A stretch of DNA of 46,715 nt, filler included, from Catajapyx aquilonaris (Eukaryota), in NCBI GenBank assembly GCA_000934665.2. It is 2 parts of 2 records of this genome, joined end to end, with 100 filler letters (N's around TTAATTAATTAA, not from the genome) between each part and the next. Parts side by side here need not be neighbours in the genome. Positions count along the whole stretch, not along the records: positions 1 to 23,179 come from JYFJ02005715.1; 1 more part is not named here. One strand, 5' to 3'. The number at the start of each line of letters is the position of its first letter. The first letter of the stretch is position 1. Of this stretch, positions 1 to 32,722 are shown in pieces. The position numbers were made by a program, and so were the translations under genes. Under the pieces are notes generated by a model, which saw only the letters and a program-made list of their open reading frames with translations, had not been told where the DNA came from and did no database searches.

Positions 1-526
1 GAGAGGTGCACAGGATCATGGCCCACTCCCCACCCGCCACCTCCCTCAGGCTAAAGGTCATGGTCACAGGGGATGGCCCCGATGGGCGGATCAAGGTTGA
101 TGGGACTCTGAACCACAAGTACCTCCAAGACGATAGATTTTCTGGTTATTCCTTTACTGCCACTTCGAAAGGCCAAACGCAGTTGTCTCACTTGTTCAGA
201 AAAATATTGTGAACCTCGGTGTGGAGTGCAATTTATTCTCCACGGCCATCGGGCAGGAGATGTACATGAACTTCCTCCGCAACCTGAGGAGGATCCTAGA
301 GGCGGAAGAGATCGCTGCCAAGACATACGTTCGAGATGAAGTGATGACAATGACCAAGTTGGAAGCCATCTTCAACATGTTGATGCTTGGCTTATTAGGT
401 TGTTTCCTGTTGTTGTTGGCGGAAATTGCAAATTTTTGTCGAATTAAATCCGGTGGAAGTCAGGGGAGGAGTGTTTATCCGAAACAGCAGGAAAATGCTA
501 CTCCCCCCCAATTCGGATATGTCTAA
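1..526 (+). pseudogene. 3' part of a divergent ionotropic receptor (S2 end plus M4) with an apparent frameshift near 200-210; 5' part lies outside the window
   Basis: ORF 209-526 ends in an iGluR/IR-type last TM helix (EVMTMTKLEAIFNMLMLGLLGCFLLLLAE) comparable to the ends of the two downstream IRs. The upstream coding-like frame 6-212 stops at the A-run in ttcagaaaaatattgtga, where the frame changes. This may be a real lesion or a sequencing error. Confidence 0.6.
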
Positions 527-1298: not shown

Positions 1299-3185
1299 AT
1301 GATGCTGCTTTCTGCATTTGTTGCTTACACTTGCTTCAACATTGCTGGGGCTGCCGTACATTTACACACGGTAAATGATGTGGACGATCAGATCCCTCGT
1401 TTCATCAACAATATTCTTGGCGGACATGTCCTCGTCATGGACATTGAGTGTCCACTGGCGGTCACTCACGACTCGGACGGACCAATCCCTCAGAGTCTGG
1501 ACACACTCCTGTCCAGCATGTCCTCTGCTGGACGACCCCTGGTCATCCGGACAAGTTCTCAGAGCACCTGGGATTGCCAGCCGACATCAAGAGACAATGC
1601 GGCCGTGTTCAGAGAGCCATACCGCGCATCCAAGTGTCTGGTGCACATGGTTGTGACATGCCAGGACACCTACGAGGACATGATGGACATCATTTTGGAC
1701 CCGGACGAAGGGATGCTCGGAGTGAGGAAGACAAAGGACCGGTTCGTGTTCTGGATACGGGACTCGACTCATCCGGATTTCATGCTGGACAAACCGGCCT
1801 CGCAGTTCAAGTACAAGGTGTCGGTCAGTACAGGAGGAGCCAACGGTGCTCTCAAGGCACACTCTGTGTGTCTCTTCTGCGACCAAGGAGAACCACAGAT
1901 CGAATCAGTGTCTGGGGACAGTTTGTTCATAGACACTGCAGAGGACTTACATGGGAAACGTCTGGAAGGTGTTTACACATGGAATAATAGCAACCACGAT
2001 TGCAGCTCCGTGGATATACTATGTGTTAATATGTGCTTTTTGGGCAAGGCAATGAATTTCAAATGGCAGATAATCCAAGTTGATTTCGACGCCATCCTTT
2101 CTGACACCGGCAGTGCCCTCGAACTTATGGAAGATTTTCGGTCAGGTGAAGTGTCGTTCATACCAAAGGCTCCTGTGTTGGACCTGATATACCAACTGTT
2201 TGATTGTGCTCCACCTCATGATGCATACAGATACACTTTCATTGCACGTAAGCCTCGTCCAATAATTACACCTCTCATTTTAGTGATGCCGTACTCGTAT
2301 TGGACTTGGTCCTTTTTGATCGCATCATTTTTGTTAGAGGTGGGTGTTTTCACACTTATCGCCAAGTTTCATAGGAGGCATGGAATATTTACTCCGTTCA
2401 ATTCCACTGTAGAAATTTTTAAATATTTGGGGAAATATCTTGTGGAGCAATGTTCTCCGTCTCCTTCGTCCTCGTCGTACAGAATGTTCTTGATGTTCTG
2501 GATATATTTTACCATCATTGTTTGCACCGCATACAAAAGCAAACTCTATAACATGTTGATTTTTCCTCCCTTGGAAAAAATTCCTGCAGATATTAACGAA
2601 CTGACTCATTCCAGTTTCTCCATAGAAACGACTACAATCGTAAAAATGTTTCTAGATGAAGCAAGTCATGTTAACGCTGACACATACTCCGACCTTCTGT
2701 CAAATATGCATGTTGTAAATGAGATCTACACCCACTACGGGGATCTCCTGACAGATGACATTGTGATCCTGGAAGCTGACTCTGTCTTGGAGGAAATCGC
2801 CTCCTGTGCCTTTGTTGAAGCAAATGGAGAAACATTCATATCCAGTGACGCTTGGGCTCTTGTGCACACGTCAATGCTTGTTTTGAAAGACAACATATTG
2901 GCCGAGAACATTAACAAATGGACGCATATATTCAACAGCATCGGTTTGGAGTTGCATCGGGTAGGAATGGAGAAACATGCGAATTCTCTGTATGCTGAGA
3001 AGAAGCGAAGGGAAAAGGCGTTCACTTCAGGAAGTGAACATGTGCAGTTCACCTGGCGTCATGTCGAAGGAACCTTCCTGATCCTGTTCATTGGATGCGT
3101 GGCTGGATTGGTTGCATTTTTTAGAGAAATATCCTCTGTGCATGGTTGTTGTAAGAGAAGAAGAAGGTACCCATTTCTTCTGTAA
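1299..3185 (+). CDS. Divergent ionotropic receptor (IR, iGluR-related chemoreceptor), intronless, 628 aa
   Basis: Signal peptide; CLFC motif then DLHGKRL at the S1 start; pre-M1/M1 LVMPYSYWTW; LVEQ pore region; M3 FWIYFTIIVCTAYKSKLYNMLIFP (SYTANLAAF equivalent); M4 FTWRHVEGTFLILFIGCVAGLVAFFRE. Confidence 0.9.
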   Translation: MMLLSAFVAYTCFNIAGAAVHLHTVNDVDDQIPRFINNILGGHVLVMDIECPLAVTHDSDGPIPQSLDTLLSSMSSAGRPLVIRTSSQSTWDCQPTSRDNAAVFREPYRASKCLVHMVVTCQDTYEDMMDIILDPDEGMLGVRKTKDRFVFWIRDSTHPDFMLDKPASQFKYKVSVSTGGANGALKAHSVCLFCDQGEPQIESVSGDSLFIDTAEDLHGKRLEGVYTWNNSNHDCSSVDILCVNMCFLGKAMNFKWQIIQVDFDAILSDTGSALELMEDFRSGEVSFIPKAPVLDLIYQLFDCAPPHDAYRYTFIARKPRPIITPLILVMPYSYWTWSFLIASFLLEVGVFTLIAKFHRRHGIFTPFNSTVEIFKYLGKYLVEQCSPSPSSSSYRMFLMFWIYFTIIVCTAYKSKLYNMLIFPPLEKIPADINELTHSSFSIETTTIVKMFLDEASHVNADTYSDLLSNMHVVNEIYTHYGDLLTDDIVILEADSVLEEIASCAFVEANGETFISSDAWALVHTSMLVLKDNILAENINKWTHIFNSIGLELHRVGMEKHANSLYAEKKRREKAFTSGSEHVQFTWRHVEGTFLILFIGCVAGLVAFFREISSVHGCCKRRRRYPFLL

Positions 3186-4185
3186 CCCTCGAGATGCACT
3201 TGGCACCTGTGTGTTGGTTTATTGCAACCATCTCGGATTTTTCTGAAAATAATCACAGCTGTACACACATATGCCGTATCACTGCATATCAAGTTTCAGC
3301 CAAATTACGAAATACCATAGGGAGGGAAAAAATCGCGAAAGTTTGAAAATTTGGAATTTTTTGGATATCAATTGGAGTATGACAGTCTGTTGTAATCAAT
3401 TTTATTGCGCTTCGACACACGGCGGGTTGCGCAACACTCTTGTTGACAGTCAGATGTCCCTTTGTTCTGTACATGTTCTGTTATTAAGATTCACGCACCA
3501 TAAGCCCCATGCTGCCCTGTTCAAAGAGAATATATCCATGTGTCTCAAACACCTGATGTGTCTGTACACCTATTATACGACATGATGGTCACCATTTTAC
3601 ATATGTTGCACATATGATGGTAAAATCACATTCAGAGATTATGTTATTATTATTTGCGGAGAAGCAAATTATTTGAAATAGTGAATCACTTTTTTGTTAA
3701 TTGATGTTATTAATTATATCATATTATTGTTAATTAATATTAATGTTGTCCGATCAGCATTGATCCTTTCGTCATTTACTGTTTCAATAACAGAATAAAC
3801 AAAAAATGGCAACAAAATAATATGAGGTGTTATACATAAGCGTTGGGTTGCATCGTGCCACATATGATGAAACAAAGCGTATATGTTCAAAGACCCTGTC
3901 AACAAACATCACACGTAGAATCTCGCTTTTGTTGTCTTTGGTGAAGGATATATATTCCTTTACAACCAAGGTGCTGACCTCAGAAGTCCCTTTGTGATGC
4001 ACCGTCCGACATTCAGTAATGACAAAGCATGCACCCACACGTCCACCAGTATAGCCTACTCCTTCGATTATTCGATACGAAATGGTACCACGATGTATAA
4101 TTTGTGACATATTCTCGTAGTGTCGAGGTTAACACCGCAAGTGTGAGTGGTGGTTGCAAAATAAGGATCACCATTTGAAGTCATT

Positions 4186-6051
4186 ATGTTACCAGCACTT
4201 GCTGTTTCTGCATTTCTCAACATAACATCGGGTCTCCTGATCTTATTACAACAAAACGATGCAGACGATCAGATCCCTAAGTTTGTCAACAATATTCTGC
4301 AAAGTGACCTCGTCATGGACATTGAGTGTCCACTGGCTGTCACCCACGACTCGGACGGACCAGTCCCTCAGAGTCTGGACACACTCCTGCCCAGCATGTC
4401 ATCTGCTGGACGACCATTGTTCATCAGGACAAGTTCTCGGAGCACCTGGGATTGCCAGCCGACATCTAGAGACAATGCGGCCGTGTTCTTCAGAGAGCCA
4501 TACCGCGCATCCAAGTGTCTGGTGCACATGGTTGTGACATGCCAGGACACCTACGAGGACATGATGGACATCATTTTGGACCCGGACGAAGGGATGCTCG
4601 GAGTGAGGAAGACAAAGGACCGGTTCGTGTTCTGGATACGGGACTCGACTCGTCCGGATTTCATGATGGACAAACCGGCCTCGCAGTTCAAGTACAAGGT
4701 GTCGCTGAGTGCAGGAGGAGCCAACGGTGCTCTCAAGGCACACTCGGTGTGTTTCTTCTGCGACCGAGGAAAACCACAGATCGAATCAGTGTCTGGGGAC
4801 AGTTTGTTCAAAGACACTGCAGAGGACTTACATGGGAAACATCTGGACGGTATATACATAGTAAATTCACACGATGAAGAATGTGTTTCGCACTCACCGC
4901 CACTTCACATATGCTACTTGGGAAATGCACTTAATTTCAAGTGGCGTATCACCGAAGTCGATTTTGATACCATCCTGTCCGATCCGGCCAAAAGTATCGA
5001 TATGATGAAAGATTTTCAATTAGGAAAAGTATCATTTATCCCCAAGGCTCCTGTCCTGGATCTGATTTACCAACTGTTTGATTGCGCCACACCTCACAAT
5101 ACCTACAGATTCACTTTCCTTTCACGTAACCCTCGCCCTGTGATAACACCTTTGATTTTAGTATTGCCTTACTCTCCTGTGACATGGTGCATATTTGTCA
5201 CATCGCTTTTAGTGTCAACAGTGTTTTATGCAATCCTCTCAAGGTTCCAAAATAGTCAGAAAGATTTACAGCTACTATATGCGTTAAAATACTTGGCGAA
5301 GATCGTTGTCGAGCAGTATCCTAGATCACCTTCCGCTTCATCCCTTAGAATGTTTTTAGCCTTGTGGATTCAATTTTGCATCATTTTCTGCACCGGATAC
5401 AAAAGCAAGCTGTATAACATCCTAATATTTCCACCCCTTGAAAAAGTCCCACGAAACATCCCTGAGCTGATGGACTCAAACTTTTCCATAGTGACGTCGT
5501 ATATTGTCAAAATGTTCATAGACGAAGCTCACAAAGATTTTCGCGACGCTTACATAAATCTGATATCGAAAATAAGAGTCGTGCCTTCAGTCTACGATTA
5601 CTACGATGACATCTTGACACACGACATTGTCATCTTAGAATCAGATTCGAGATTGAAAAGTGTAGCTTACTTCACTGACATTCAGCACAAATCGAAGCCC
5701 TTCACCTTCTCAGATGAGTTGGCCTTCGTGCCAGCCTCTCTGATAGTCCTGAAGAACAACATTATCGCAGAGAACATCAACCATTGGATGCACGTCTTCA
5801 ATAGTATTGGACTTGGAGTGTATAAAGACAGTATAAGCGACTTTCATTACCAGCTGAATGTTGAAAGAGAGAAGTCATACTTGGCTGAGTCTAAAGATGT
5901 CAAGTTCACATGGGATCATGTTGAAGGTCCCTTTGTTGTCCTTTTGGTTGGGAGCATAATGGGACTGCTGGAGTTTTTGAGAGAAATTATTTACTGGAAT
6001 GTTAGGCGACTACTCGACAAGAAAAGACATGAAAAAAGATTTCATCATTAA
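4186..6051 (+). CDS. Divergent ionotropic receptor paralog, intronless, 621 aa
   Basis: Same architecture as 1299-3185: CFFC, DLHGKHL, LVLPYSPVTW, LWIQFCIIFCTGYKSKLYNILIFP, FTWDHVEGPFVVLLVG. Collinear tandem paralog. Confidence 0.9.
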   Translation: MLPALAVSAFLNITSGLLILLQQNDADDQIPKFVNNILQSDLVMDIECPLAVTHDSDGPVPQSLDTLLPSMSSAGRPLFIRTSSRSTWDCQPTSRDNAAVFFREPYRASKCLVHMVVTCQDTYEDMMDIILDPDEGMLGVRKTKDRFVFWIRDSTRPDFMMDKPASQFKYKVSLSAGGANGALKAHSVCFFCDRGKPQIESVSGDSLFKDTAEDLHGKHLDGIYIVNSHDEECVSHSPPLHICYLGNALNFKWRITEVDFDTILSDPAKSIDMMKDFQLGKVSFIPKAPVLDLIYQLFDCATPHNTYRFTFLSRNPRPVITPLILVLPYSPVTWCIFVTSLLVSTVFYAILSRFQNSQKDLQLLYALKYLAKIVVEQYPRSPSASSLRMFLALWIQFCIIFCTGYKSKLYNILIFPPLEKVPRNIPELMDSNFSIVTSYIVKMFIDEAHKDFRDAYINLISKIRVVPSVYDYYDDILTHDIVILESDSRLKSVAYFTDIQHKSKPFTFSDELAFVPASLIVLKNNIIAENINHWMHVFNSIGLGVYKDSISDFHYQLNVEREKSYLAESKDVKFTWDHVEGPFVVLLVGSIMGLLEFLREIIYWNVRRLLDKKRHEKRFHH

Positions 6052-6663: not shown

Positions 6664-7742
6664 ATTAAGTTAGGTCCTTTGATCATATCGCCCTTTCTGT
6701 GAATTCGGTATTGAGTTCAACACTCCAACATGACCTTCCACAGTGGCGTAAATATCATTGACAAGCGAATAGCATGACACAGACTGAATTTCATAGATGA
6801 CAACCATAGACCGAACCACACCGTAAGCAGATCCACATGGCAGATATTTAAAATTTAGCAATTATTGTCACTTCCCGGACGGATAATTAGCTAATTTTCA
6901 TATTTTCAATGAGAAATGATTCATTTAAACATGGACAGAAATATTTTCTGGCGGGATAATTTTGCACAAGGTTTACTACCAAATCACACTGGCAAATATA
7001 GGTGACAGGCTATGATAAATTTAAGCTTAATTGTTGTGTAATAAATAAGCATAAATAAGCATTATTCCAGCATAACACTGAGTAACATACCATTAACAAC
7101 TATCCAACACATTATCTAGTCGCACGTATACCTGAATCCAAGTTGCATGGTCACGACTGATATGGTGTGTTGGCAATGAGGCTTCTTCCGGCAGAGGAAA
7201 ACTGAATAGGGTAATTGCCGGGTCAGGGAAGTTTTAAAAAATAGTAGTAGGTATGCAGGAGAAAAAATTATGTGATTTTATTTCTGTAGTGTAAATGCTA
7301 CATAAACGTATTTTTTGTATCCATAAAATGTCACTTCATTTTTGACAAAAATATAGACCTTGCCCAACAGGTTTGACAATATTCGCTCTGAATTAATTGT
7401 GCTAATTGTCACTGGCAGTACAAAAATGGCAGTTGACAATCCCACTTACAATGCAAGCAACTATAGTTTCAGCATGCCTGTCTTGTACAATTGCGGACAA
7501 TTCCATGATAAATTAACATTTCCAAATGTGGAAGACAAAGGAAGGCAGTTTTCATGTTAGCAACAGATTTGGTTGTCCCTGAGTGGCAAGAGAAGAGGCC
7601 AAGAATCCTCCTGCCCTCCCACTCTCAGCCCACTTTCCCCGCCACTTGTGGACTCAGGCCAAATCCATTGTCGCTGCCAACAATGACAAGTGATGAATCA
7701 CCAATCAAAATGCTTCTCGTAACAGTAACACAATTTTTGCAC

Positions 7743-7910
7743 GTGTTGCTGGGCCGGTGTTGCTGGGCCAGTGGTGCTGGGCCGGTGCTGCTGGGCCAGT
7801 GCTGCTGGGCCAGTGGTGCTGGGCCGGTGGTGCTGGGCAGGTGGTGCTGGGCCGGTGCTGCTGAGCCGGTGCTGCTGAGCCGGTGGTGCTGGGCCGGTGT
7901 TGCTGGGCTC
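7743..7910. repeat. GC-rich minisatellite, 12 copies of a 14-nt unit gtg(g/t/c)tgctgggccg
   Basis: Units read in register from 7743 to 7910 (168 nt). The repeat explains the repetitive ORFs seen in several frames. Confidence 0.9.
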
Positions 7911-8792
7911 CACCGTCCACTGCTGGTGTAGAAATTTTTTGGAGATTCCATTGATGTCAGTATCTTGGGAGTCCTGAATAAGGGTTATCACATCTGGTGG
8001 CATCACAAGGAAGCACAGGCGTCCCCTTTCCATTGAATGGTGTCCAGGACTGAAATAAATCTTGGAAGGAAGAAAGGAGGCTGCTGGGTGGATAGCAGTT
8101 TACTATGTCATGGGTTTTGCTCTGGTTCGCATTTCCAACATATGCTTTTGTTGGCCCTGAAAAGGGCCGTTTTGCTTTCGGTGCTGTGATGCCAAGGGTG
8201 ATGCTCTGCCAGCTGAGGTAGTTTGTGTGGGTGATCAGCCGAGGAATAAATGCTGGCAGATGTGTCAACCCAGGCCAGCAAAATGCGGTCTTATCAAGGT
8301 TGTCATTTGCTGGTGTGTGGCATCATTTGATGGAAAATGACACCCAGCTGCAGAGGCAGCAGAAGCGTACAGGTGCTCATTCTTCTACCATCAATGTCGT
8401 AAGCTGTGCGTTACCCTCGCTTGGAATCGAACAAGCCCTAGTGGACACACTCACAGACCTGGAAAGAATTCTCAAACATACCTAGCAAGCAATACCTATG
8501 ACTCATCCCTAAAAGGAGGGTCACCACAAACGACAACATTACTATGATTTAAATCCTTCCACATAAAACATGCAAAGCATTATGGTTAGCAACACCATAC
8601 AAAAATCACCCACACACAAACAATCAAAGAAAACCCACGCATATCCACACAATAATTCCATCCTTACATGCACAAAACACATATTAAAACATATCATATC
8701 TTTCCTGATAAACATCTTACAGTTCCAAACTGAAGTCCTACTTTCTAATCTAATTCTAAATGAGTTCATTCCTTAGGTCAGTGTAACAAATT

Positions 8793-9234: not shown

Positions 9235-11836
9235 TCAGGCTCCGCCTTCTTGGATGAATTTCATGCGAAGGGCATCTTGTGGAATTACACGGTGATCCTG
9301 GAATGTGAAAAAAAAAATACCATTAGCATTGTGGCATATTGTGCTGGACTGGCAATTAGGGGACGAAAGAACATTACCCCATTATTTAAAAAAATAAAAA
9401 ATACTGGACTGGCAATATAAATTGAGAAAATGGTACTTACAGGATCCATGTCTAGGCAGGCATGCAGAAACTCTGCACAGTCCTCATCCACCTTGTCCGA
9501 AAAGGATAAGATCCCGGCCTTGGTCAGGAGAGTGAGAGCAATGGCACGATCATTGGGGTCGCCCTTTAAAAAAATTACTTATTAGAATCAAATAGGCGAA
9601 CATAAATGCAGAATATGACAGTTCAGTGCTGGACAAATTAGCCGTCGCTGAATGTTTTTTTTCGGCGGCGACGGCGGCGGCGTTACCTGGCAACTCCCTC
9701 TGGCGGGCCAATTCAAACATCAGCCCATGGAGAGCGCTTCCATTATTGCCACTGTTTACAAATCGAGTGAGTGACGCGGACGACCCAGCGACGGGTCTCT
9801 TCTGCCTGCGCACTCACTCACTCCATTTGTAAACAGTGGCAACAATGGAAGCGCTCTCCATGGGCTGATGTTTGAATTGGCCCGCCAGACGGAGTTGCCA
9901 GGTAACGCCGCCGCCGCAGCCGCCGGAAAAAAACATTCAGCGACAGCTATTATGTCCAGCACTGTTCAAATTAGAGCAACAATCATACCTTGCTGAAGTA
10001 ATGCCTCAGAGCATACTTATTTTGGCCCATGTTCTGGCAGAAGTCTTTCGTGTGAGTTCCATGCATCAGAACCTTCTCCGGGATCTCTCCGCAAAGGACC
10101 CTCCACATGTGCAGGGTGACAAGTGGGGGCTGCGGGCTGAACACTTTGCACTTTGCTCCGAAGATCATGCCGCAGCACATGCACCCAAGCGACCAAACAT
10201 CTATGGCCTCGGTTATGTCTGCGCCTGTGAAAAGAAAAGCGATGTTACAATCTTGAAGGAAAATGAATCGTGCATTGGGGCCGGACAACTAATAGGCCTA
10301 CTTACCAAGAAATACTTCTGGGGCCTTATTTGGGTAAGGCTGGATGTCCACTCCCTTGTACTTCTTCACCTCATCAGTAAAAAAAGCCAGCCCAAAATCA
10401 GCCACCTTCACTCTCCAGTTGTCAGGGTCCGAGGCATCCACCAGAACATTGTCAAGTTTCAGATCCGCATGGATCATGCCCCAGTCCTAAAACAAGAATG
10501 GTTTTAATTAATGCAATTTTATTTAAGGCAATGGGGCACAAAATGTCGACGCCTAAGGATTATATTGTCGTATGTCCATTGTTAAAACGTGGACATACGA
10601 CAATATAATCCTTAGGCGTCGATGTGTCGACACACTTACCTTCATCCAATCCAAGGCAGTCAAAATTTGCTTTGCCACAACAGACGTCTGCCTTGACGTG
10701 AAGCATTGCTCGGGCTGCTCGTTCAGGAGTGTCCACAAGTCCTTTTGCATGATCTCCATCACCATACAGCAGTGGCCTCGGTACATGAAGTGGTCCAACA
10801 GTCTGATGATGTTGTGGTTGTAGCCATCATCAAAGCCATCCTCTTCCTGCAGCATGGTCATCATGTCCACCTCCTTGTTAAATTGACGACGTCTCCGACC
10901 ATCTTGTACCTTCAGCGCCACAACATCAGCAAAGCGACCATTCACCTGACCCAGCATGTTGGCAAACACACTGGTTGACTGCCTCTGGCATCTCCTCACC
11001 TCGCCATACACTCCCTTCCCCAAAATGCTCCCGATGACATACTCTGCACCATTAGTCACCCGGAAACGGTCACGATGAGCAAGAATCTCACCCTGCAAAA
11101 AGAAAGGAGCATATAAAAAACCTGCAACGTCATTAATTGGGAGATTTTATTTCAAAAGAATATACAGGCGCAGGAATTTGAGCTGTTCGCATTACTTGCT
11201 GAAGGTGTGAATATCAATTTTCAAATGCGGATCAAAGTATTTTGCATCCAGCATTGCTCACTCATAAAAACAATACAGCCGATGGACTATGCCTAAGGCT
11301 TGTACAAGTACCCCATAATGGCAATAGGCCTATTCTCATGAGTCAGTTCTTTGTTCTAGGCCTATATAGCTTTTGTTCTGCACTAGGCATAGCCCTGGTT
11401 CTGTTCTAGGCCTCAGCCTCAGGTCTGTACTAGGTCTAGCCTTGTTCTAGGCATGTAGCCTCGGCTCTTTGTGCTAGCCCTCGCCCAGTGCTTTCCTTTG
11501 GACCTAGGCCTAGTACCATACCCAGTATCGGCACTAGGCCTAGCTCAAGTACTAGGACTGGGCAATTGAAAATTTCTGTGCAAAATGCCCACATTCCCTC
11601 CTCAGCCCACCCGTCCCCATACTCATATTAGCGGGCAGCAGATTTTTCGCCATTTTCCGCATATATTTGCGTCCGAAAATAATGTTTCTCGAACGCAAAT
11701 ATACGCAGAAAATGACTTCGAAACTTGCTTCCCGCATGAGTATACAATCCTGCATCAAACTCACCCCATCCTCATCTTCCTCTCGCTTCCTCTTTCCCAA
11801 CATGCTGGCCGCCTTATTCATCTCCTGTTGAGCCAT
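9235..11836 (-). CDS. HIPK/DYRK-like (CMGC group) Ser/Thr protein kinase, six exons, ~375 aa
   Basis: Exons 11836-11765, 11092-10640, 10486-10306, 10224-9989, 9563-9441 and 9297-9235, all with GT-AG boundaries and compatible phases. Motifs: GKGVYGEV, VALK, alphaC KE, HNIIRLLDHF, IHADLKLDN, KVADFG, APE, IDVWSLGC, LDMDPDHR. N-terminal KRKR NLS-like motif. Exon 1 is the least certain. Confidence 0.85.
9624..9964. mobile_element. Foldback MITE in kinase intron 4
   Basis: Termini cagtgctggaca...tgtccagcactg. Arms of ~150 bp are near-perfect reverse complements around a short spacer. No clear TSD. Confidence 0.8.
10546..10622. repeat. Perfect 33-bp inverted repeat with 11-nt loop in kinase intron 2
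   Basis: tcgacgcctaaggattatattgtcgtatgtcca (10546-10578) and its exact reverse complement (10590-10622). Confidence 0.9.
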
Positions 11837-14789: not shown

Positions 14790-15821
14790 CTACTTGATGG
14801 AGAAAGAACATACCACCTTTATGATCTCAGCATCATTACATCCCTTCCAAAACTGACTTGCCATTACCTCCGTCGCATTTGACTTGAAAAACTGCAAACA
14901 CACATTCTTCACTGTGGGAATATTATTTACGTTAGCAGCACTCAAAATGCAAAGTACATTTTCCACAGTCAATTTTTTTTCAAGGTGCTTCTCGCAGACA
15001 TGCTGAAGACATGGAATATCGTACTTCCCAGCAGCTACTATCAGACCTATAACAGATTCATCTGCTATCTCTAGTGGTATTTCATCAGTGTATAGGAAAT
15101 GAATTAGGGCTTTCAGTTCATCAGTATAAATATCCTCAATTACAACCCTTCCCGTGATTTTCTCCTTAGTGTCGTGCACAAACATGGCTGCAAAAACCGG
15201 ACTTCTAGCAGACAGAATGAATGAATGAACACGAAATTCATCTTTATCTGCCACCAACTTCACATCCTTGCCAACTTCTGATGTCAGCATGCGGCGTACA
15301 TCCAGAGATAATTGTGAGCAGTCATGAGTGACAACTTCATCATGCTTAATCTCCTCCTCCTCCATCACCTTCAAAATTTCACCTTGACAAATTATTGTCA
15401 AAGTATCATTGGGAAGAAGATGAGATGCCCCATCATGCAATTCTTTTAGAGCAATAAATTCAGGATACCCATGCCTGGATGCCTGCCTGTAGGAGTATGG
15501 GGAGTAATAAGAGCTAAATATCACAAGCGATGACCTCTCTCTAGAAAAATCATTGCCAGTGGCACTCTTAATGGTGAACTTTAATGAGGACGTGACAGTT
15601 TTACGTGGACGAGAAGCGAGCTGCAGATAAATTGAATTGTGTATTCCATCACCCACGAGATCGAGCTGTAGCTTCCAATTGTGTGAATAAAGTCCATTAG
15701 AGTAGATATTGGAAATGATAGGCTGCTGCATCTTTTGCATATAGCTGTACTTTTCAAGCGTCCACTTGAAAAAAAAAGGTTCCACTAGTGGTCTCAGAAG
15801 AGAATGATGCACTTCAGCCAT
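14790..15821 (-). CDS. MATH-BTB (speckle-type POZ / SPOP-like) Cullin-3 adaptor, 343 aa, no CDS introns
   Basis: MATH: FKWTLEKYS, WKLQL, SIYLQL, HGYPEFI, LLPNDTLTIIC. BTB: DVKLV, FRVHSFILSARSPVFAAMF, ALIHFLYTD, AAGKYDIPCLQHVCE. BACK-like tail LTVENVL. Confidence 0.93.
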   Translation of the reverse strand: MAEVHHSLLRPLVEPFFFKWTLEKYSYMQKMQQPIISNIYSNGLYSHNWKLQLDLVGDGIHNSIYLQLASRPRKTVTSSLKFTIKSATGNDFSRERSSLVIFSSYYSPYSYRQASRHGYPEFIALKELHDGASHLLPNDTLTIICQGEILKVMEEEEIKHDEVVTHDCSQLSLDVRRMLTSEVGKDVKLVADKDEFRVHSFILSARSPVFAAMFVHDTKEKITGRVVIEDIYTDELKALIHFLYTDEIPLEIADESVIGLIVAAGKYDIPCLQHVCEKHLEKKLTVENVLCILSAANVNNIPTVKNVCLQFFKSNATEVMASQFWKGCNDAEIIKVVCSFSIK

Positions 15822-16456
15822 TTTCCACTCAAAGCTGAACTGTTTGGGTCAAGGGATAGCAATCCTGGAAAAAAAAAAGGTCTACTGAAAGGAGCAGATA
15901 TTGGATTCACTTGTGTTGCACCAATTATCTTTGCTCTACTATGCTGCGTTTTGAGCTCATTAGAATATCTGCTTTTTCCTTGGATAGCTTTCAGTGAAGA
16001 CCTGTGCACTGTACAATCTCCATATCTCGGGGAAAGAATGTTAATGTTTTAACATTAACATACTACCATAGGGTAGTAGTACAAAACTTCTCCGGATTCT
16101 CCCATTTCTTTCCACTATCAACATCCATCTGCACCGCAATAATTCAATACCTGAATCATGCCTTTCTAAGCATATTTTACATAATTGACATGTTCCCACT
16201 ACATTGGACAATTATTTCTTACTTACTGTTATTAATAGCTCTGTAGACTTAGCTTAGGACAGCAAAATGAGTGCATGTCAGCAAAGTTTGACATAGGTGG
16301 GTTTGCAGAAGGAAACAAAAATGGAGTCCCCCCCCAGGCAGCATGTTCAGTGTACATTAATGCATTGCAACCTTGAGTCGAGGATTCAAGATGGACTCCT
16401 AGATTACCTTTCCTTTTGACTGAAGTTGGATCTAGTTAAAAATAAAGGTCTCTTCA

Positions 16457-20493: not shown

Positions 20494-21501
20494 CTAATCA
20501 ACCAGGAGCTTCACAACTTCAGCATTGGCACACTCTTTCCATGACTGAGACATCTTCACTGCTTTCACATTGGACTTGACAAATTTCACACATGCTTCCT
20601 TCAATATTGGTGAGTCATGCATAGTGGCCAAATCAAGAATGTCTAGTACAGTTTCTACAGTTACATGGCTTTGAAGATGAAGCCCACACAAGGACTTCAA
20701 ACGAAGAATCCGATACTTATCCGCAGCAGCCACGAGTTCCATTGCCATCTCAACTTGCATGTCTTCTGGGGCTTGATCAGTGTACAAAAAGTGTATGAGG
20801 CCTTGCACCACTTCCGGCTTGCAGTCCTTGATAATGATCTTCCCTGTCATTTTTTCCTCAGTCTCATGCCCAAACATGGCTGCAAATACTGGGCTTCGAG
20901 CACAAAGTAAATACTTGTGCACTGGAAACTCTGAACCATTTACCACCAATGTTACATCCCTACTTAAATCTGACGTCAAAGTATTCTGCACATCATCAGA
21001 TAATCCAGGGCCATAAATCTCAATCCTCTCTTTCACTTCCTCAGATTTTCTCTCCAAAAAAACCTCTCCCTCACAAACCACAGTCAGGGTATCATTAGGA
21101 AGGAGGTCAGATGCCCTCTTTGCCAACTCTTGGACGCAAATAAATTTATTATGACCCCAGGCTAGGGAGCTGTTTTCCTTGCCATATATCTTAACAAATT
21201 TGGCTACTGAATAGTCATTGTTGGTGGCACTCTTAATAGAGAACTTTCTTGATGCTGTAATGGCATCACCAACTCGATCAGGACAATAGCGGAGGTAAAG
21301 TGAGATATGGCCACTATTTTCCTTACCAGCACCTTTGGGATGAAGCTCCATCTCCCACTTTCTTGGTTCCGACCCACCCGTAGTAAATGGTTGGATTATA
21401 CGTTCGTCCTCCTCTACTGAAGAACTATACCTTTCAATAGTCCACTTGAAGCAAAATGGTTGAGTTTGTCGAGAAGACACTATGTGTTGGACATTAGACA
21501 T
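20494..21501 (-). CDS. MATH-BTB (SPOP-like) paralog, 335 aa, no CDS introns
   Basis: FKWTIERYS, KWEMELHPKG, HISLYL, AWGHNKFI, LLPNDTLTVVCE, DVTLVV, FPVHKYLLCARSPVFAAMF, AADKYRILRLKSLC. Splice acceptor just upstream of the ATG (~21517). Confidence 0.93.
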   Translation of the reverse strand: MSNVQHIVSSRQTQPFCFKWTIERYSSSVEEDERIIQPFTTGGSEPRKWEMELHPKGAGKENSGHISLYLRYCPDRVGDAITASRKFSIKSATNNDYSVAKFVKIYGKENSSLAWGHNKFICVQELAKRASDLLPNDTLTVVCEGEVFLERKSEEVKERIEIYGPGLSDDVQNTLTSDLSRDVTLVVNGSEFPVHKYLLCARSPVFAAMFGHETEEKMTGKIIIKDCKPEVVQGLIHFLYTDQAPEDMQVEMAMELVAAADKYRILRLKSLCGLHLQSHVTVETVLDILDLATMHDSPILKEACVKFVKSNVKAVKMSQSWKECANAEVVKLLVD

Positions 21502-23179: not shown

Positions 23180-23279
23180 NNNNNNNNNNNNNNNNNNNNN
23201 NNNNNNNNNNNNNNNNNNNNNNNTTAATTAATTAANNNNNNNNNNNNNNNNNNNNNNNNNNNNNNNNNNNNNNNNNNNN
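23180..23279. other. Artificial assembly gap/contig linker
   Basis: 44 N + TTAATTAATTAA (stop codons in all six frames) + 44 N, exactly 100 nt. Confidence 0.95.
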
Positions 23280-31772: not shown

Positions 31773-32218
31773 AGTTGCAATGTAAGGCCCGGGGGGGTGA
31801 TGGAGGCCTCCATCACCCCCCCGGGCCTTACATTGCAACTGTAGCCCAGCTGCTTCCCCAGTTCTATGAACTGTTTTTCCTTGCCAGCTGTGGAACCTAC
31901 TCCTGTAGGGCTGTAGGTACCCCGCCACTAACAGCCCCTGCCTCTTTTTGATAGTTTCTGTTGGTGGGGTGCCAAGTGACATCTCCGACAGACATGCCAT
32001 ATGGCATGTCTGTCGGAGATGTCACTTGGCGTCCCACCAACAGAAACTATCTGTTTCTGTTTCTGTTGGTGGGACGCCAAGTGACATCTCCCACCAACAG
32101 AAACTATCAAAAAGAGGCAGGGGCTGTTGGTGGCGGGGTACCTACAGCCCTATAGGAGTAGGTTCCACAGCTGGCAAGGAAAAACAGTTCATGGAACTGG
32201 GGAAGCAGCTGGGCTACA
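31773..32218. repeat. Compound palindrome cluster
   Basis: Perfect loop-less 68-bp palindrome 31773-31840; 102-bp near-perfect palindrome 31950-32051 centred on tgccat|atggca; outer inverted arms ~31840-31969 and ~32091-32218. Confidence 0.92.
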
Positions 32219-32722
32219 CAGTTATTGCAGCCCAGGATCAACAGAAGGCCAATGTAGCCACAGTCCAGGGACGAGCTGCCAGTAGGGAAGGTGCAAGGGG
32301 GGCAGCAGCTGGGGCGCAACCACAGCAGGGTGGAGGAAATAACAACACTGTTAAGAAAAAGATTGATGATTGCAAGTGGTTCATAACAGGAAGATGCTTC
32401 CGGGTTCGTACAGTCTGATAATAACCTGCAACACACACAGTTAATTAATGTACTTGTAACGAGCACGCCACACAGCTTTTTTCCCTTCAATTATTCGACA
32501 GCCTGACAAATGCCAGTACCGCCACCATTACCCTGCCAAGAGAGCTACAACGGTGTGTCCTCGCTGGTGGGAGGGCAAGTGTCACAACCACAAGTGCAAT
32601 ATGAGACATATATTCTGCTAGAATATGTTGGTGAGGAGGATGGCTCCGATGATGACAACAACGACTACGCTGGACACAGAGGGCGAGAAGAAAAGTCACA
32701 GGATGACTGCTGCTGCATGTGA
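32106..32722 (+). pseudogene. Tandem CCCH zinc-finger gene of ZC3H11A/C12orf50 type; 5' end rearranged, possible frameshift near 32610
   Basis: Splicing 32403 to 32502 (GT-AG, phase 0) gives DDCKWFITGRCFRPDKCQYRHHYPAKRATTVCPRWWEGKCHNHKCNMRH, two CCCH fingers spaced like the ZC3H11A N-terminus. TAG at 32619-32621, while an acidic coding-like tail continues in another frame to 32722. Confidence 0.7.

Follow-up and report, generated by a model that had tools for sequence, protein, structure and literature searches.

Region-limited homogenisation of an N-terminal domain among diverged ionotropic receptor genes of Catajapyx aquilonaris, probably by recurrent gene conversion

How can two neighbouring receptor genes be nearly identical over one part of their coding sequence and strongly diverged on both sides of it? 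This question is raised by a 46,715-nucleotide stretch of the genome of Catajapyx aquilonaris (GCA_000934665.2; hereafter the window), which carries two ionotropic receptor (IR) genes, A and B, sharing such a tract (Table 1). The window consists of two contigs, 1-23179 and 23280-46715, separated at 23180-23279 by a spacer of N runs around TTAATTAATTAA; since it is joined in this way and the linkage of the second contig to the IR genes is not known, only 1-23179 bears on the IR finding. A first-pass annotation had proposed that domain-limited, GC-biased gene conversion holds an assembly domain constant across receptors with variable ligand-binding domains. From a comparison of the copies within this genome, we consider it very likely that recurrent, region-limited interlocus gene conversion has acted among about 20 old IR paralogues, with the ligand lobes mostly spared.

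The near-identity of the two tracts was confirmed, and the 163-nt run without any difference was recovered exactly, being the longest exact match in a codon alignment of the pair. Nucleotide identity was 0.957 and the proportion of synonymous differences (pS) 0.072 over codons 45-224, versus 0.600 and 0.709 over codons 225-628 and 0.561 and 0.63 over codons 1-44. The G+C counts given earlier for lines 1501-1560 (35/60) and 2401-2460 (20/60) were reproduced, and G+C content at third codon positions (GC3) along the pair was 0.66 in the tract versus 0.46 downstream. Under the downstream identity rate, the identical run of 49 codons has a probability of about 2e-17. Because 149 of the 157 degenerate codons specifying the same amino acid in both genes are identical in the tract, whereas downstream only 86 of 189 are (Fisher p 2e-25), protein conservation cannot explain the identity. 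A candidate second island at residues 287-312 was rejected, as only 12 of 22 codons are identical there, which protein conservation accounts for. The annotated divergence of the signal peptides and of the post-tract sequence stood, but the 5' flank of B is not unique, being 86% identical over 450 nt to a copy on contig C2685.

The assembly is a fragmented, short-read one of 20,583 contigs, from which 94 open reading frames (ORFs) of at least 540 amino acids were kept, taken from the long-open-frame regions of 150 scored family matches among 1035 first-look candidates, and so sample only part of the family; all 150 scored candidates matched, as a lineage-specific expansion of intronless genes would lead one to expect. 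The genome-wide search with the tract returned 39 matches. Eighteen of these, gene A included, are near-full copies of 92-96% identity on 9 contigs; the others comprise incomplete copies on C991 and three further contigs, a full-length relative of 73% identity (L021, on C9669) and weaker matches. Among the near-full copies, 14 are intact ORFs, three are broken and one runs off its contig. The 163-nt run is exact in 5 of the 18, and across the core (residues 101-170) gene A carries their majority sequence. For the 14 intact genes, pS was 0.13 at residues 45-100, 0.02 in the core, 0.20 at residues 171-224 and 0.52-0.61 downstream, and four-fold sites differed at 0.025 in the core versus 0.529 downstream. 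The description as a constant-plus-variable array holds for these genes, and the tract appears to be an island of concerted evolution in paralogues whose ligand and channel halves have reached about one synonymous substitution per site (dS). The switch between the two regimes had been placed at the boundary between the amino-terminal domain (ATD) and the S1 half of the ligand-binding domain (LBD). For A and B it does fall at residue 224, just inside S1, since the modelled LBD begins at residue 217-220, but across the 14 paralogues the edges are gradients, with pS near 0 at residues 151-170, 0.19 at 191-210, 0.37 at 211-230 and 0.74 at 231-250.

The history of the tract was compared with that of the remaining sequence using pairwise homoplasy index (PHI)-type, approximately unbiased (AU), Mantel and permutation tests. 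Separate trees were incongruent and rejected each other in the AU test (p 1.6e-4 and 1e-38), and ingroup tree length was 0.57 for the tract versus 3.10 downstream; neither uniform dS along the genes nor congruent trees, which would speak against conversion, were seen. Core and downstream distances were uncorrelated (Mantel rho -0.005), and the 5' part of the tract retains some history (rho 0.51). Of the pairs that can be formed from 67 informative sites within the tract, 52% are incompatible; the share is 28% for sites no more than 10 nt apart and reaches 55% for those over 30 nt apart (PHI-type p 0.0005). Since incompatibility grows with distance within tens of bases, many short exchanges are indicated rather than one sweep. 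Minor tract alleles are common to different subclades and contigs and, together with the contrast in pS and the incongruent trees, bear out the proposal of recurrent, domain-limited conversion. L021 serves as an internal control: downstream it is about as distant from the 14 genes as these are from each other. In the tract, its dS of 0.64, versus 0.11 among the 14 copies, indicates that this region is able to diverge and that the 14 copies are being levelled.

The tandem arrangement of A and B turned out to be incidental. Tract difference was 0.072 for the 20 same-contig pairs and 0.071 for the 133 other pairs, and there is no proximity effect on tract homogenisation at contig scale. Moreover, the longest exact runs of gene A are shared with copies on C991 (227 nt), C13187, C1203 and C11039, all of them longer than its run with B. 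The copies are found within contigs of 23-103 kb, next to different genes (LRR, DENN, gustatory-receptor and BTB-MATH), and these contigs could all come from a single region spanning a few hundred kb. Over 1.2 kb that takes in the upstream gene, the copies L019 (C14159) and L002 (C1255) are 95-98% identical, as a haplotig or a recent segmental duplicate would be. A further IR copy, L024 (G000:C2196, about 15072-15890), adjoins a gustatory-receptor-type gene and has an in-frame internal deletion joining residue ~71 to S2 in a 281-aa ORF.

Both A and B scored above the Pfam cut-off for Lig_chan (PF00060), and a profile of 91 family members had GluD1 as its best match (1e-21). In the AlphaFold model of A (predicted local distance difference test score, pLDDT, 88), residues from 217-220 to 567 match the ligand-binding cores of ionotropic glutamate receptors (iGluRs), with Z 18.3, root-mean-square deviation (rmsd) 3.0 and 228 aligned residues against the GluA2 LBD. 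Folded alone (pLDDT 84), the N-terminal domain resembles residues 124-406 of GluD2 (Z 11.7, rmsd 3.4, 158 aligned) and, more generally, the second part of the ATDs of GluD2, GluD1, GluK3 and GluA1 (Z 9.8-11.7, rmsd 3.3-3.5, 151-159 aligned). It is predicted to be a half-ATD like the R2 lobe; Foldseek gave no match to it at E 0.001, and Pfam none. The tract would span most of R2 (residues 45-217 of 26-217) and the first strand of S1, ending 5-7 codons into S1. When the profile is aligned with GluD1, the arginine of TPERE in S1, which we take to be the glutamate-binding arginine, stands opposite a hydrophobic residue, and SYTANLAAF stands opposite tgYkskLfdl. None of the 7995 candidates scored in a word-index search for homologues reached E 0.001. 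An exhaustive search gave distant matches only, the closest public proteins being 20-44% identical over short parts; of ten distant matches looked up, six are named, and these six are all springtail proteins of 22-27% identity. A and B were taken as arthropod-type divergent IRs. The literature describes divergent (tuning) IRs of arthropods as single-exon genes, thought to be retroposed, with an N-terminal region of ~200 aa forming an R2-only ATD, an iGluR-type LBD and channel, and a degenerate M3 motif (PMC2924276; bioRxiv 10.64898/2026.09.30.755715). Cryo-electron microscopy (cryo-EM) places this R2 lobe against the co-receptor ATD (bioRxiv 10.64898/2026.09.30.755715). Their N-terminal region is termed highly divergent (PMC2924276), whereas here it is the best-conserved part. 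At the protein level, the reversal of the usual pattern claimed earlier is family-wide: among 80 other members, amino-acid identity is 0.40-0.43 in this domain versus 0.30-0.33 downstream.

The identity of the copies could have been created by assembly collapse or consensus smoothing, as the short-read, fragmented assembly and the absence of any read-derived piece covering the entire tract would allow. However, the copies carry private and shared variants. In three runs of one sample, assembled separately and possibly the source of the assembly, summed depth over two core positions was 20.6, 18.4 and 22.5 times single copy, versus 20 assembled full or contig-end tract copies (run X5 gives almost no cover), and one read-derived core contig of 209-225 nt had 10-11x depth where the assembly predicts 13-14 copies per 31-mer. 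A read depth of ~18-22 copies therefore argues that no collapse occurred, and such an artefact is scarcely credible. At the 3' junctions of both A and B, single-copy read-derived contigs cross over and reach 71 nt inside the tract without differences, but at the 5' junction of A the bridge is only 30 nt long, so that the junctions were recovered from reads in part; because no such piece spans the tract, the pairing of 5' flanks with 3' halves is unverified. Synonymous sites might also be frozen by a constraint on the nucleotide sequence itself (an antisense ORF, an RNA structure or a regulatory element), given that an antisense open frame of 245-261 aa covers the tract in two copies and that next to one copy there is a long hairpin containing sequence derived from the tract. 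This is made very improbable by stop codons in every antisense frame over the tract in 18/18 copies, by differences at 31-57% of the four-fold sites of L021 there, by broken copies as homogenised as intact ones and by the single-copy state of the hairpin. A doubtful but more serious possibility, compatible with conversion, is adaptive constancy, in which selection favours one identical R2 docking domain for assembly and trafficking with a shared co-receptor. It is suggested by the match of the tract to the R2 lobe, by the family-wide conservation of this domain and by the report that R2 contacts the co-receptor ATD and helps to set IR8a/IR25a specificity (bioRxiv 10.64898/2026.09.30.755715). 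On the other side, dN/dS in the tract is 0.50 among copies and 0.39 against L021, versus 0.21-0.40 downstream, a comparison that is not decisive since young variants inflate dN/dS. A McDonald-Kreitman-style table is flat (67 nonsynonymous and 36 synonymous polymorphic changes versus 59 and 37 fixed, p 0.66), homogenisation does not extend to residues 26-44 of the domain, and in the three broken copies the core is the same but for 2-3 differences, as homogenised as in the intact ones. Since dN/dS is not lower in the tract, the table is flat and broken copies are homogenised, the constancy looks like a product of recombination tolerated by selection, and the domain appears to be under no extra purifying selection; the annotated purpose of conversion, to hold the assembly domain constant, was not borne out.

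Other alternatives concern the route of the exchange. A master donor, or copying from an RNA or cDNA template, would spread one sequence to dispersed loci, in keeping with the missing proximity effect, with a star-like core whose majority sequence is that of gene A and with the proposed retroposed origin of divergent IRs (PMC2924276). Nevertheless, with a mean of ~2.4 differences per copy, one copy with none is expected among 18, the mosaic of shared alleles points to many donors, cDNA-mediated replacement is 3'-biased while the tract is 5', and the tract contigs may all stem from a single region of a chromosome; we regard this route as improbable. Unequal crossover within the tract, giving young chimeric genes, could do most of the homogenising in place of non-crossover conversion. 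L003/L011, L014/L018 and L017 are placed differently, with high support, in trees of the 5' and 3' sides, and L014 and L018 share ~1.4 kb of upstream sequence at 87-93%. The flanks are, however, still correlated overall (Mantel rho 0.36, p 0.009) while the core is correlated with neither side, site incompatibility saturates within ~30-100 nt, and mis-joins across an identical run of 160-240 nt could fake some chimeras, so that a leading part for crossover is unlikely. Gene B is a case in point: the nearest match of its 5' flank is the broken copy L011 (0.91 over 200 nt, bootstrap 100) and that of its 3' half is L014/L017 (bootstrap 100), and the 3' half of the broken copy on C2685 falls in another subclade. 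From these relationships, either B or the C2685 copy would seem to be a 5'/3' chimera joined in the tract, with phasing unverified. Crossovers in the island would explain the discordant copies, and mis-joins could explain some of them.

Conversion among the paralogues would work as follows. Short stretches of the R2-only domain would be exchanged by non-allelic gene conversion among ~20 genes, in a loop that may reinforce itself: the best-conserved domain would have stayed alike enough to recombine, while the leader and the ligand-binding lobes would have dropped below the identity needed. Conversions entering S1 would not persist, through insufficient homology or through the erasure of ligand tuning that they would cause, and tracts of varied length would cover the middle most often, giving the symmetrical gradient. 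Homogenisation of R2 may be tolerated because, according to the literature, in the IR complexes solved so far this lobe packs on a shared co-receptor and does not bind ligand, and occasional crossovers in the island might place the ligand half of one gene behind the promoter and leader of a different one. Outside the tract, three islands of high identity were found, two over M1-M3 that spare both lobes S1 and S2 (L005/L008 on C1203, residues 336-423; L012/L004, residues 324-391) and a third in S2 between close sisters; the sparing of ligand lobes by conversion is only suggestive. On C991, with a truncated tract copy on one side and an intact IR on the other, a single-copy long hairpin was observed (L017:830-1180; G000:C991, about 32063-32413) with a ~110-bp stem, -176.5 kcal/mol and z -17, carrying a 30-nt tract-like motif in stem and loop in both orientations. 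A transposon origin, whether as a miniature inverted-repeat transposable element or as a transposase site, was rejected, the repeat being single-copy and the motif confined to tract copies and the hairpin (19 matches); it is a local inverted duplication, and possibly a source of hairpin RNA against the family.

The tract is also rich in G+C, with GC3 in the clade of 0.64 in the tract, 0.77-0.78 in the core and 0.45 downstream (p 4e-5). Raised GC3 of the N-terminal domain is family-wide, occurring in 74 of 80 other genes. A synonymous dip in this domain is significant in six of eight clades, the focal one included, the dip in five of the seven others being weaker than that of the focal clade, and its depth tracks the GC3 excess over the eight (rho -0.85, p 0.007; -0.79 without the focal clade). 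A general 5' gradient of GC3 was rejected, being present in only 4 of 27 intronless BTB-MATH genes; no homogenised island was seen in these 27 members. Codon choice tied to conserved residues was likewise discarded (four-fold GC flat, at 0.42, 0.44 and 0.43, across downstream conservation classes), as was a CpG island (observed/expected CpG 0.68 in the tract versus 0.73 downstream). We lean slightly towards the simplest reading, that raised GC3 is the long-term footprint of biased conversion.

Several results weigh against conversion, or its GC bias, as an account of the island. All evidence comes from one genome, and the PHI-type test was also significant downstream (p 0.0005), which saturation and codon structure can cause. 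No proximity effect was seen here, whereas known cases of conversion show one. One of the three secondary islands is in S2, and M1-M3 is not homogenised clade-wide. The GC bias claimed by the first-pass annotation gains from the raised GC3 and the clade-level correlation, but a derived-allele test was not significant (p 0.38 for all sites; 0.07 for synonymous ones, 6 versus 9 sites), third-position fixed changes numbered 10 from weak to strong bases versus 9 from strong to weak, and L021, which is not homogenised, is equally GC-rich (core GC3 0.75). Furthermore, a skew in composition by itself reduces synonymous differences, the choice of the eight clades from one tree was made by eye, and the core dip was not significant among 18 non-focal sister pairs (13/18, p 0.07).

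Table 1. Features of genes A and B, in window coordinates.
Feature	Position	Strand	Evidence
Gene A, intronless divergent (tuning-type) IR, 628 aa, single ORF	1299..3185	+	ORF, Pfam Lig_chan, fold
A signal-peptide-like helix and linker, diverged from B	1299..1429	+	codon alignment, model
A N-terminal domain, residues 26-217, predicted lower (R2-like) iGluR ATD lobe, upper lobe absent	1374..1949	+	structure alignment
Homogenised tract in A, residues 45-224	1430..1970	+	codon alignment, genome search, paralogue pS
Tract core, residues 101-170, pS 0.02 among 14 paralogues	1599..1808	+	paralogue pS
163-nt run identical to 4489-4651	1608..1770	+	pair alignment, 18-copy comparison
A S1 half of LBD, diverged	1950..2258	+	model, synonymous comparison
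A M1-pore-M3, diverged at synonymous sites	2259..2564	+	model, synonymous comparison
A S2 half of LBD, diverged	2565..3038	+	model, synonymous comparison
B 5' flank and leader, 86% shared with broken copy on C2685	3881..4307	+	flank comparison, trees
Gene B, intronless divergent IR, 621 aa, single ORF	4186..6051	+	ORF, Pfam Lig_chan
Homogenised tract in B	4308..4851	+	codon alignment, genome search
163-nt run identical to 1608-1770	4489..4651	+	pair alignment

Elsewhere on the first contig, window 1-526 holds the 3' end of a further, more distantly related gene for a membrane protein, which includes an M4-like helix; the gene is truncated at the start of the contig, seems to run in two frames, has no match in Pfam and is probably another divergent IR. 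Just 3' of gene A, at about 3226-3340, lies a very high-copy repeat (bin depth ~14,000 versus 35), and a 14-nt tandem repeat occupies 7715-7936. On the minus strand there are a protein-kinase fragment (10556-11146) and two intronless MATH-BTB (SPOP-like) genes (14790-15821 and 20494-21501), whose family has at least 123 matches in the genome.

The pattern is already known from avian odorant receptors and protocadherins, and here it is found in the IR family. The closest published case is that of the avian gamma-c odorant receptors, in which a GC-rich, near-identical 5' stretch of ~300 bp stands beside diverse ligand-contacting parts (bioRxiv 10.1101/2025.11.14.688425). Those are vertebrate G-protein-coupled receptors, tested across species, clustered on dot chromosomes and marked by chromosome-specific substitutions, whereas here the family is one of invertebrate ion channels, a single tract matches one folded domain, the background is near saturation and no proximity effect appears at contig scale. 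Clustered protocadherins also show ectodomain-limited homogenisation with raised GC3 and spared specificity-bearing domains (fugu, PMC1852091; Noonan et al. 2004 via PMC3966226), but only among neighbouring genes of a subcluster, each with its own sequence, while the IR copies form one pool over 9-12 contigs. As in the conversion-versus-selection model of RHCE/RHD (Innan 2003 via PMC3966226), divergence persists where selection blocks conversion and polymorphism is shared elsewhere; that model concerns two loci versus ~20 here, and in the IR lobes selection is only suggested. Drosophila IRs are described as evolving by birth and death, with conversion detected but minor, in a few IR orthologue groups (PMC4122928). 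In the open-access literature we found no report of domain-limited homogenisation in IRs, although the supplements of PMC4122928 on converted IR groups may bear on this.

With this finding, 'partitioned' gene conversion is extended to IRs, the largest family of chemoreceptor channels in invertebrates; the contrast is unusually sharp (~30-fold in pS), and the boundary lies at a structural domain for which a role is known from cryo-EM. The 14 receptors, with one N-terminal domain, 14 ligand domains and a non-homogenised relative, are a natural set for the study of R2 and co-receptor choice, and trees, probes, RNA interference and short-read expression counts based on the 5' third of such genes will mislead. 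A more speculative and rather unlikely extension is that the tract is homogenised in trans between IR loci dispersed through the genome, independently of distance, and acts as a standing recombination hub that re-pairs promoters and leaders with ligand halves while the co-receptor docking face stays constant. If true, the IR family would possess a germline mechanism that generates new pairings of receptor and neuron combinatorially.

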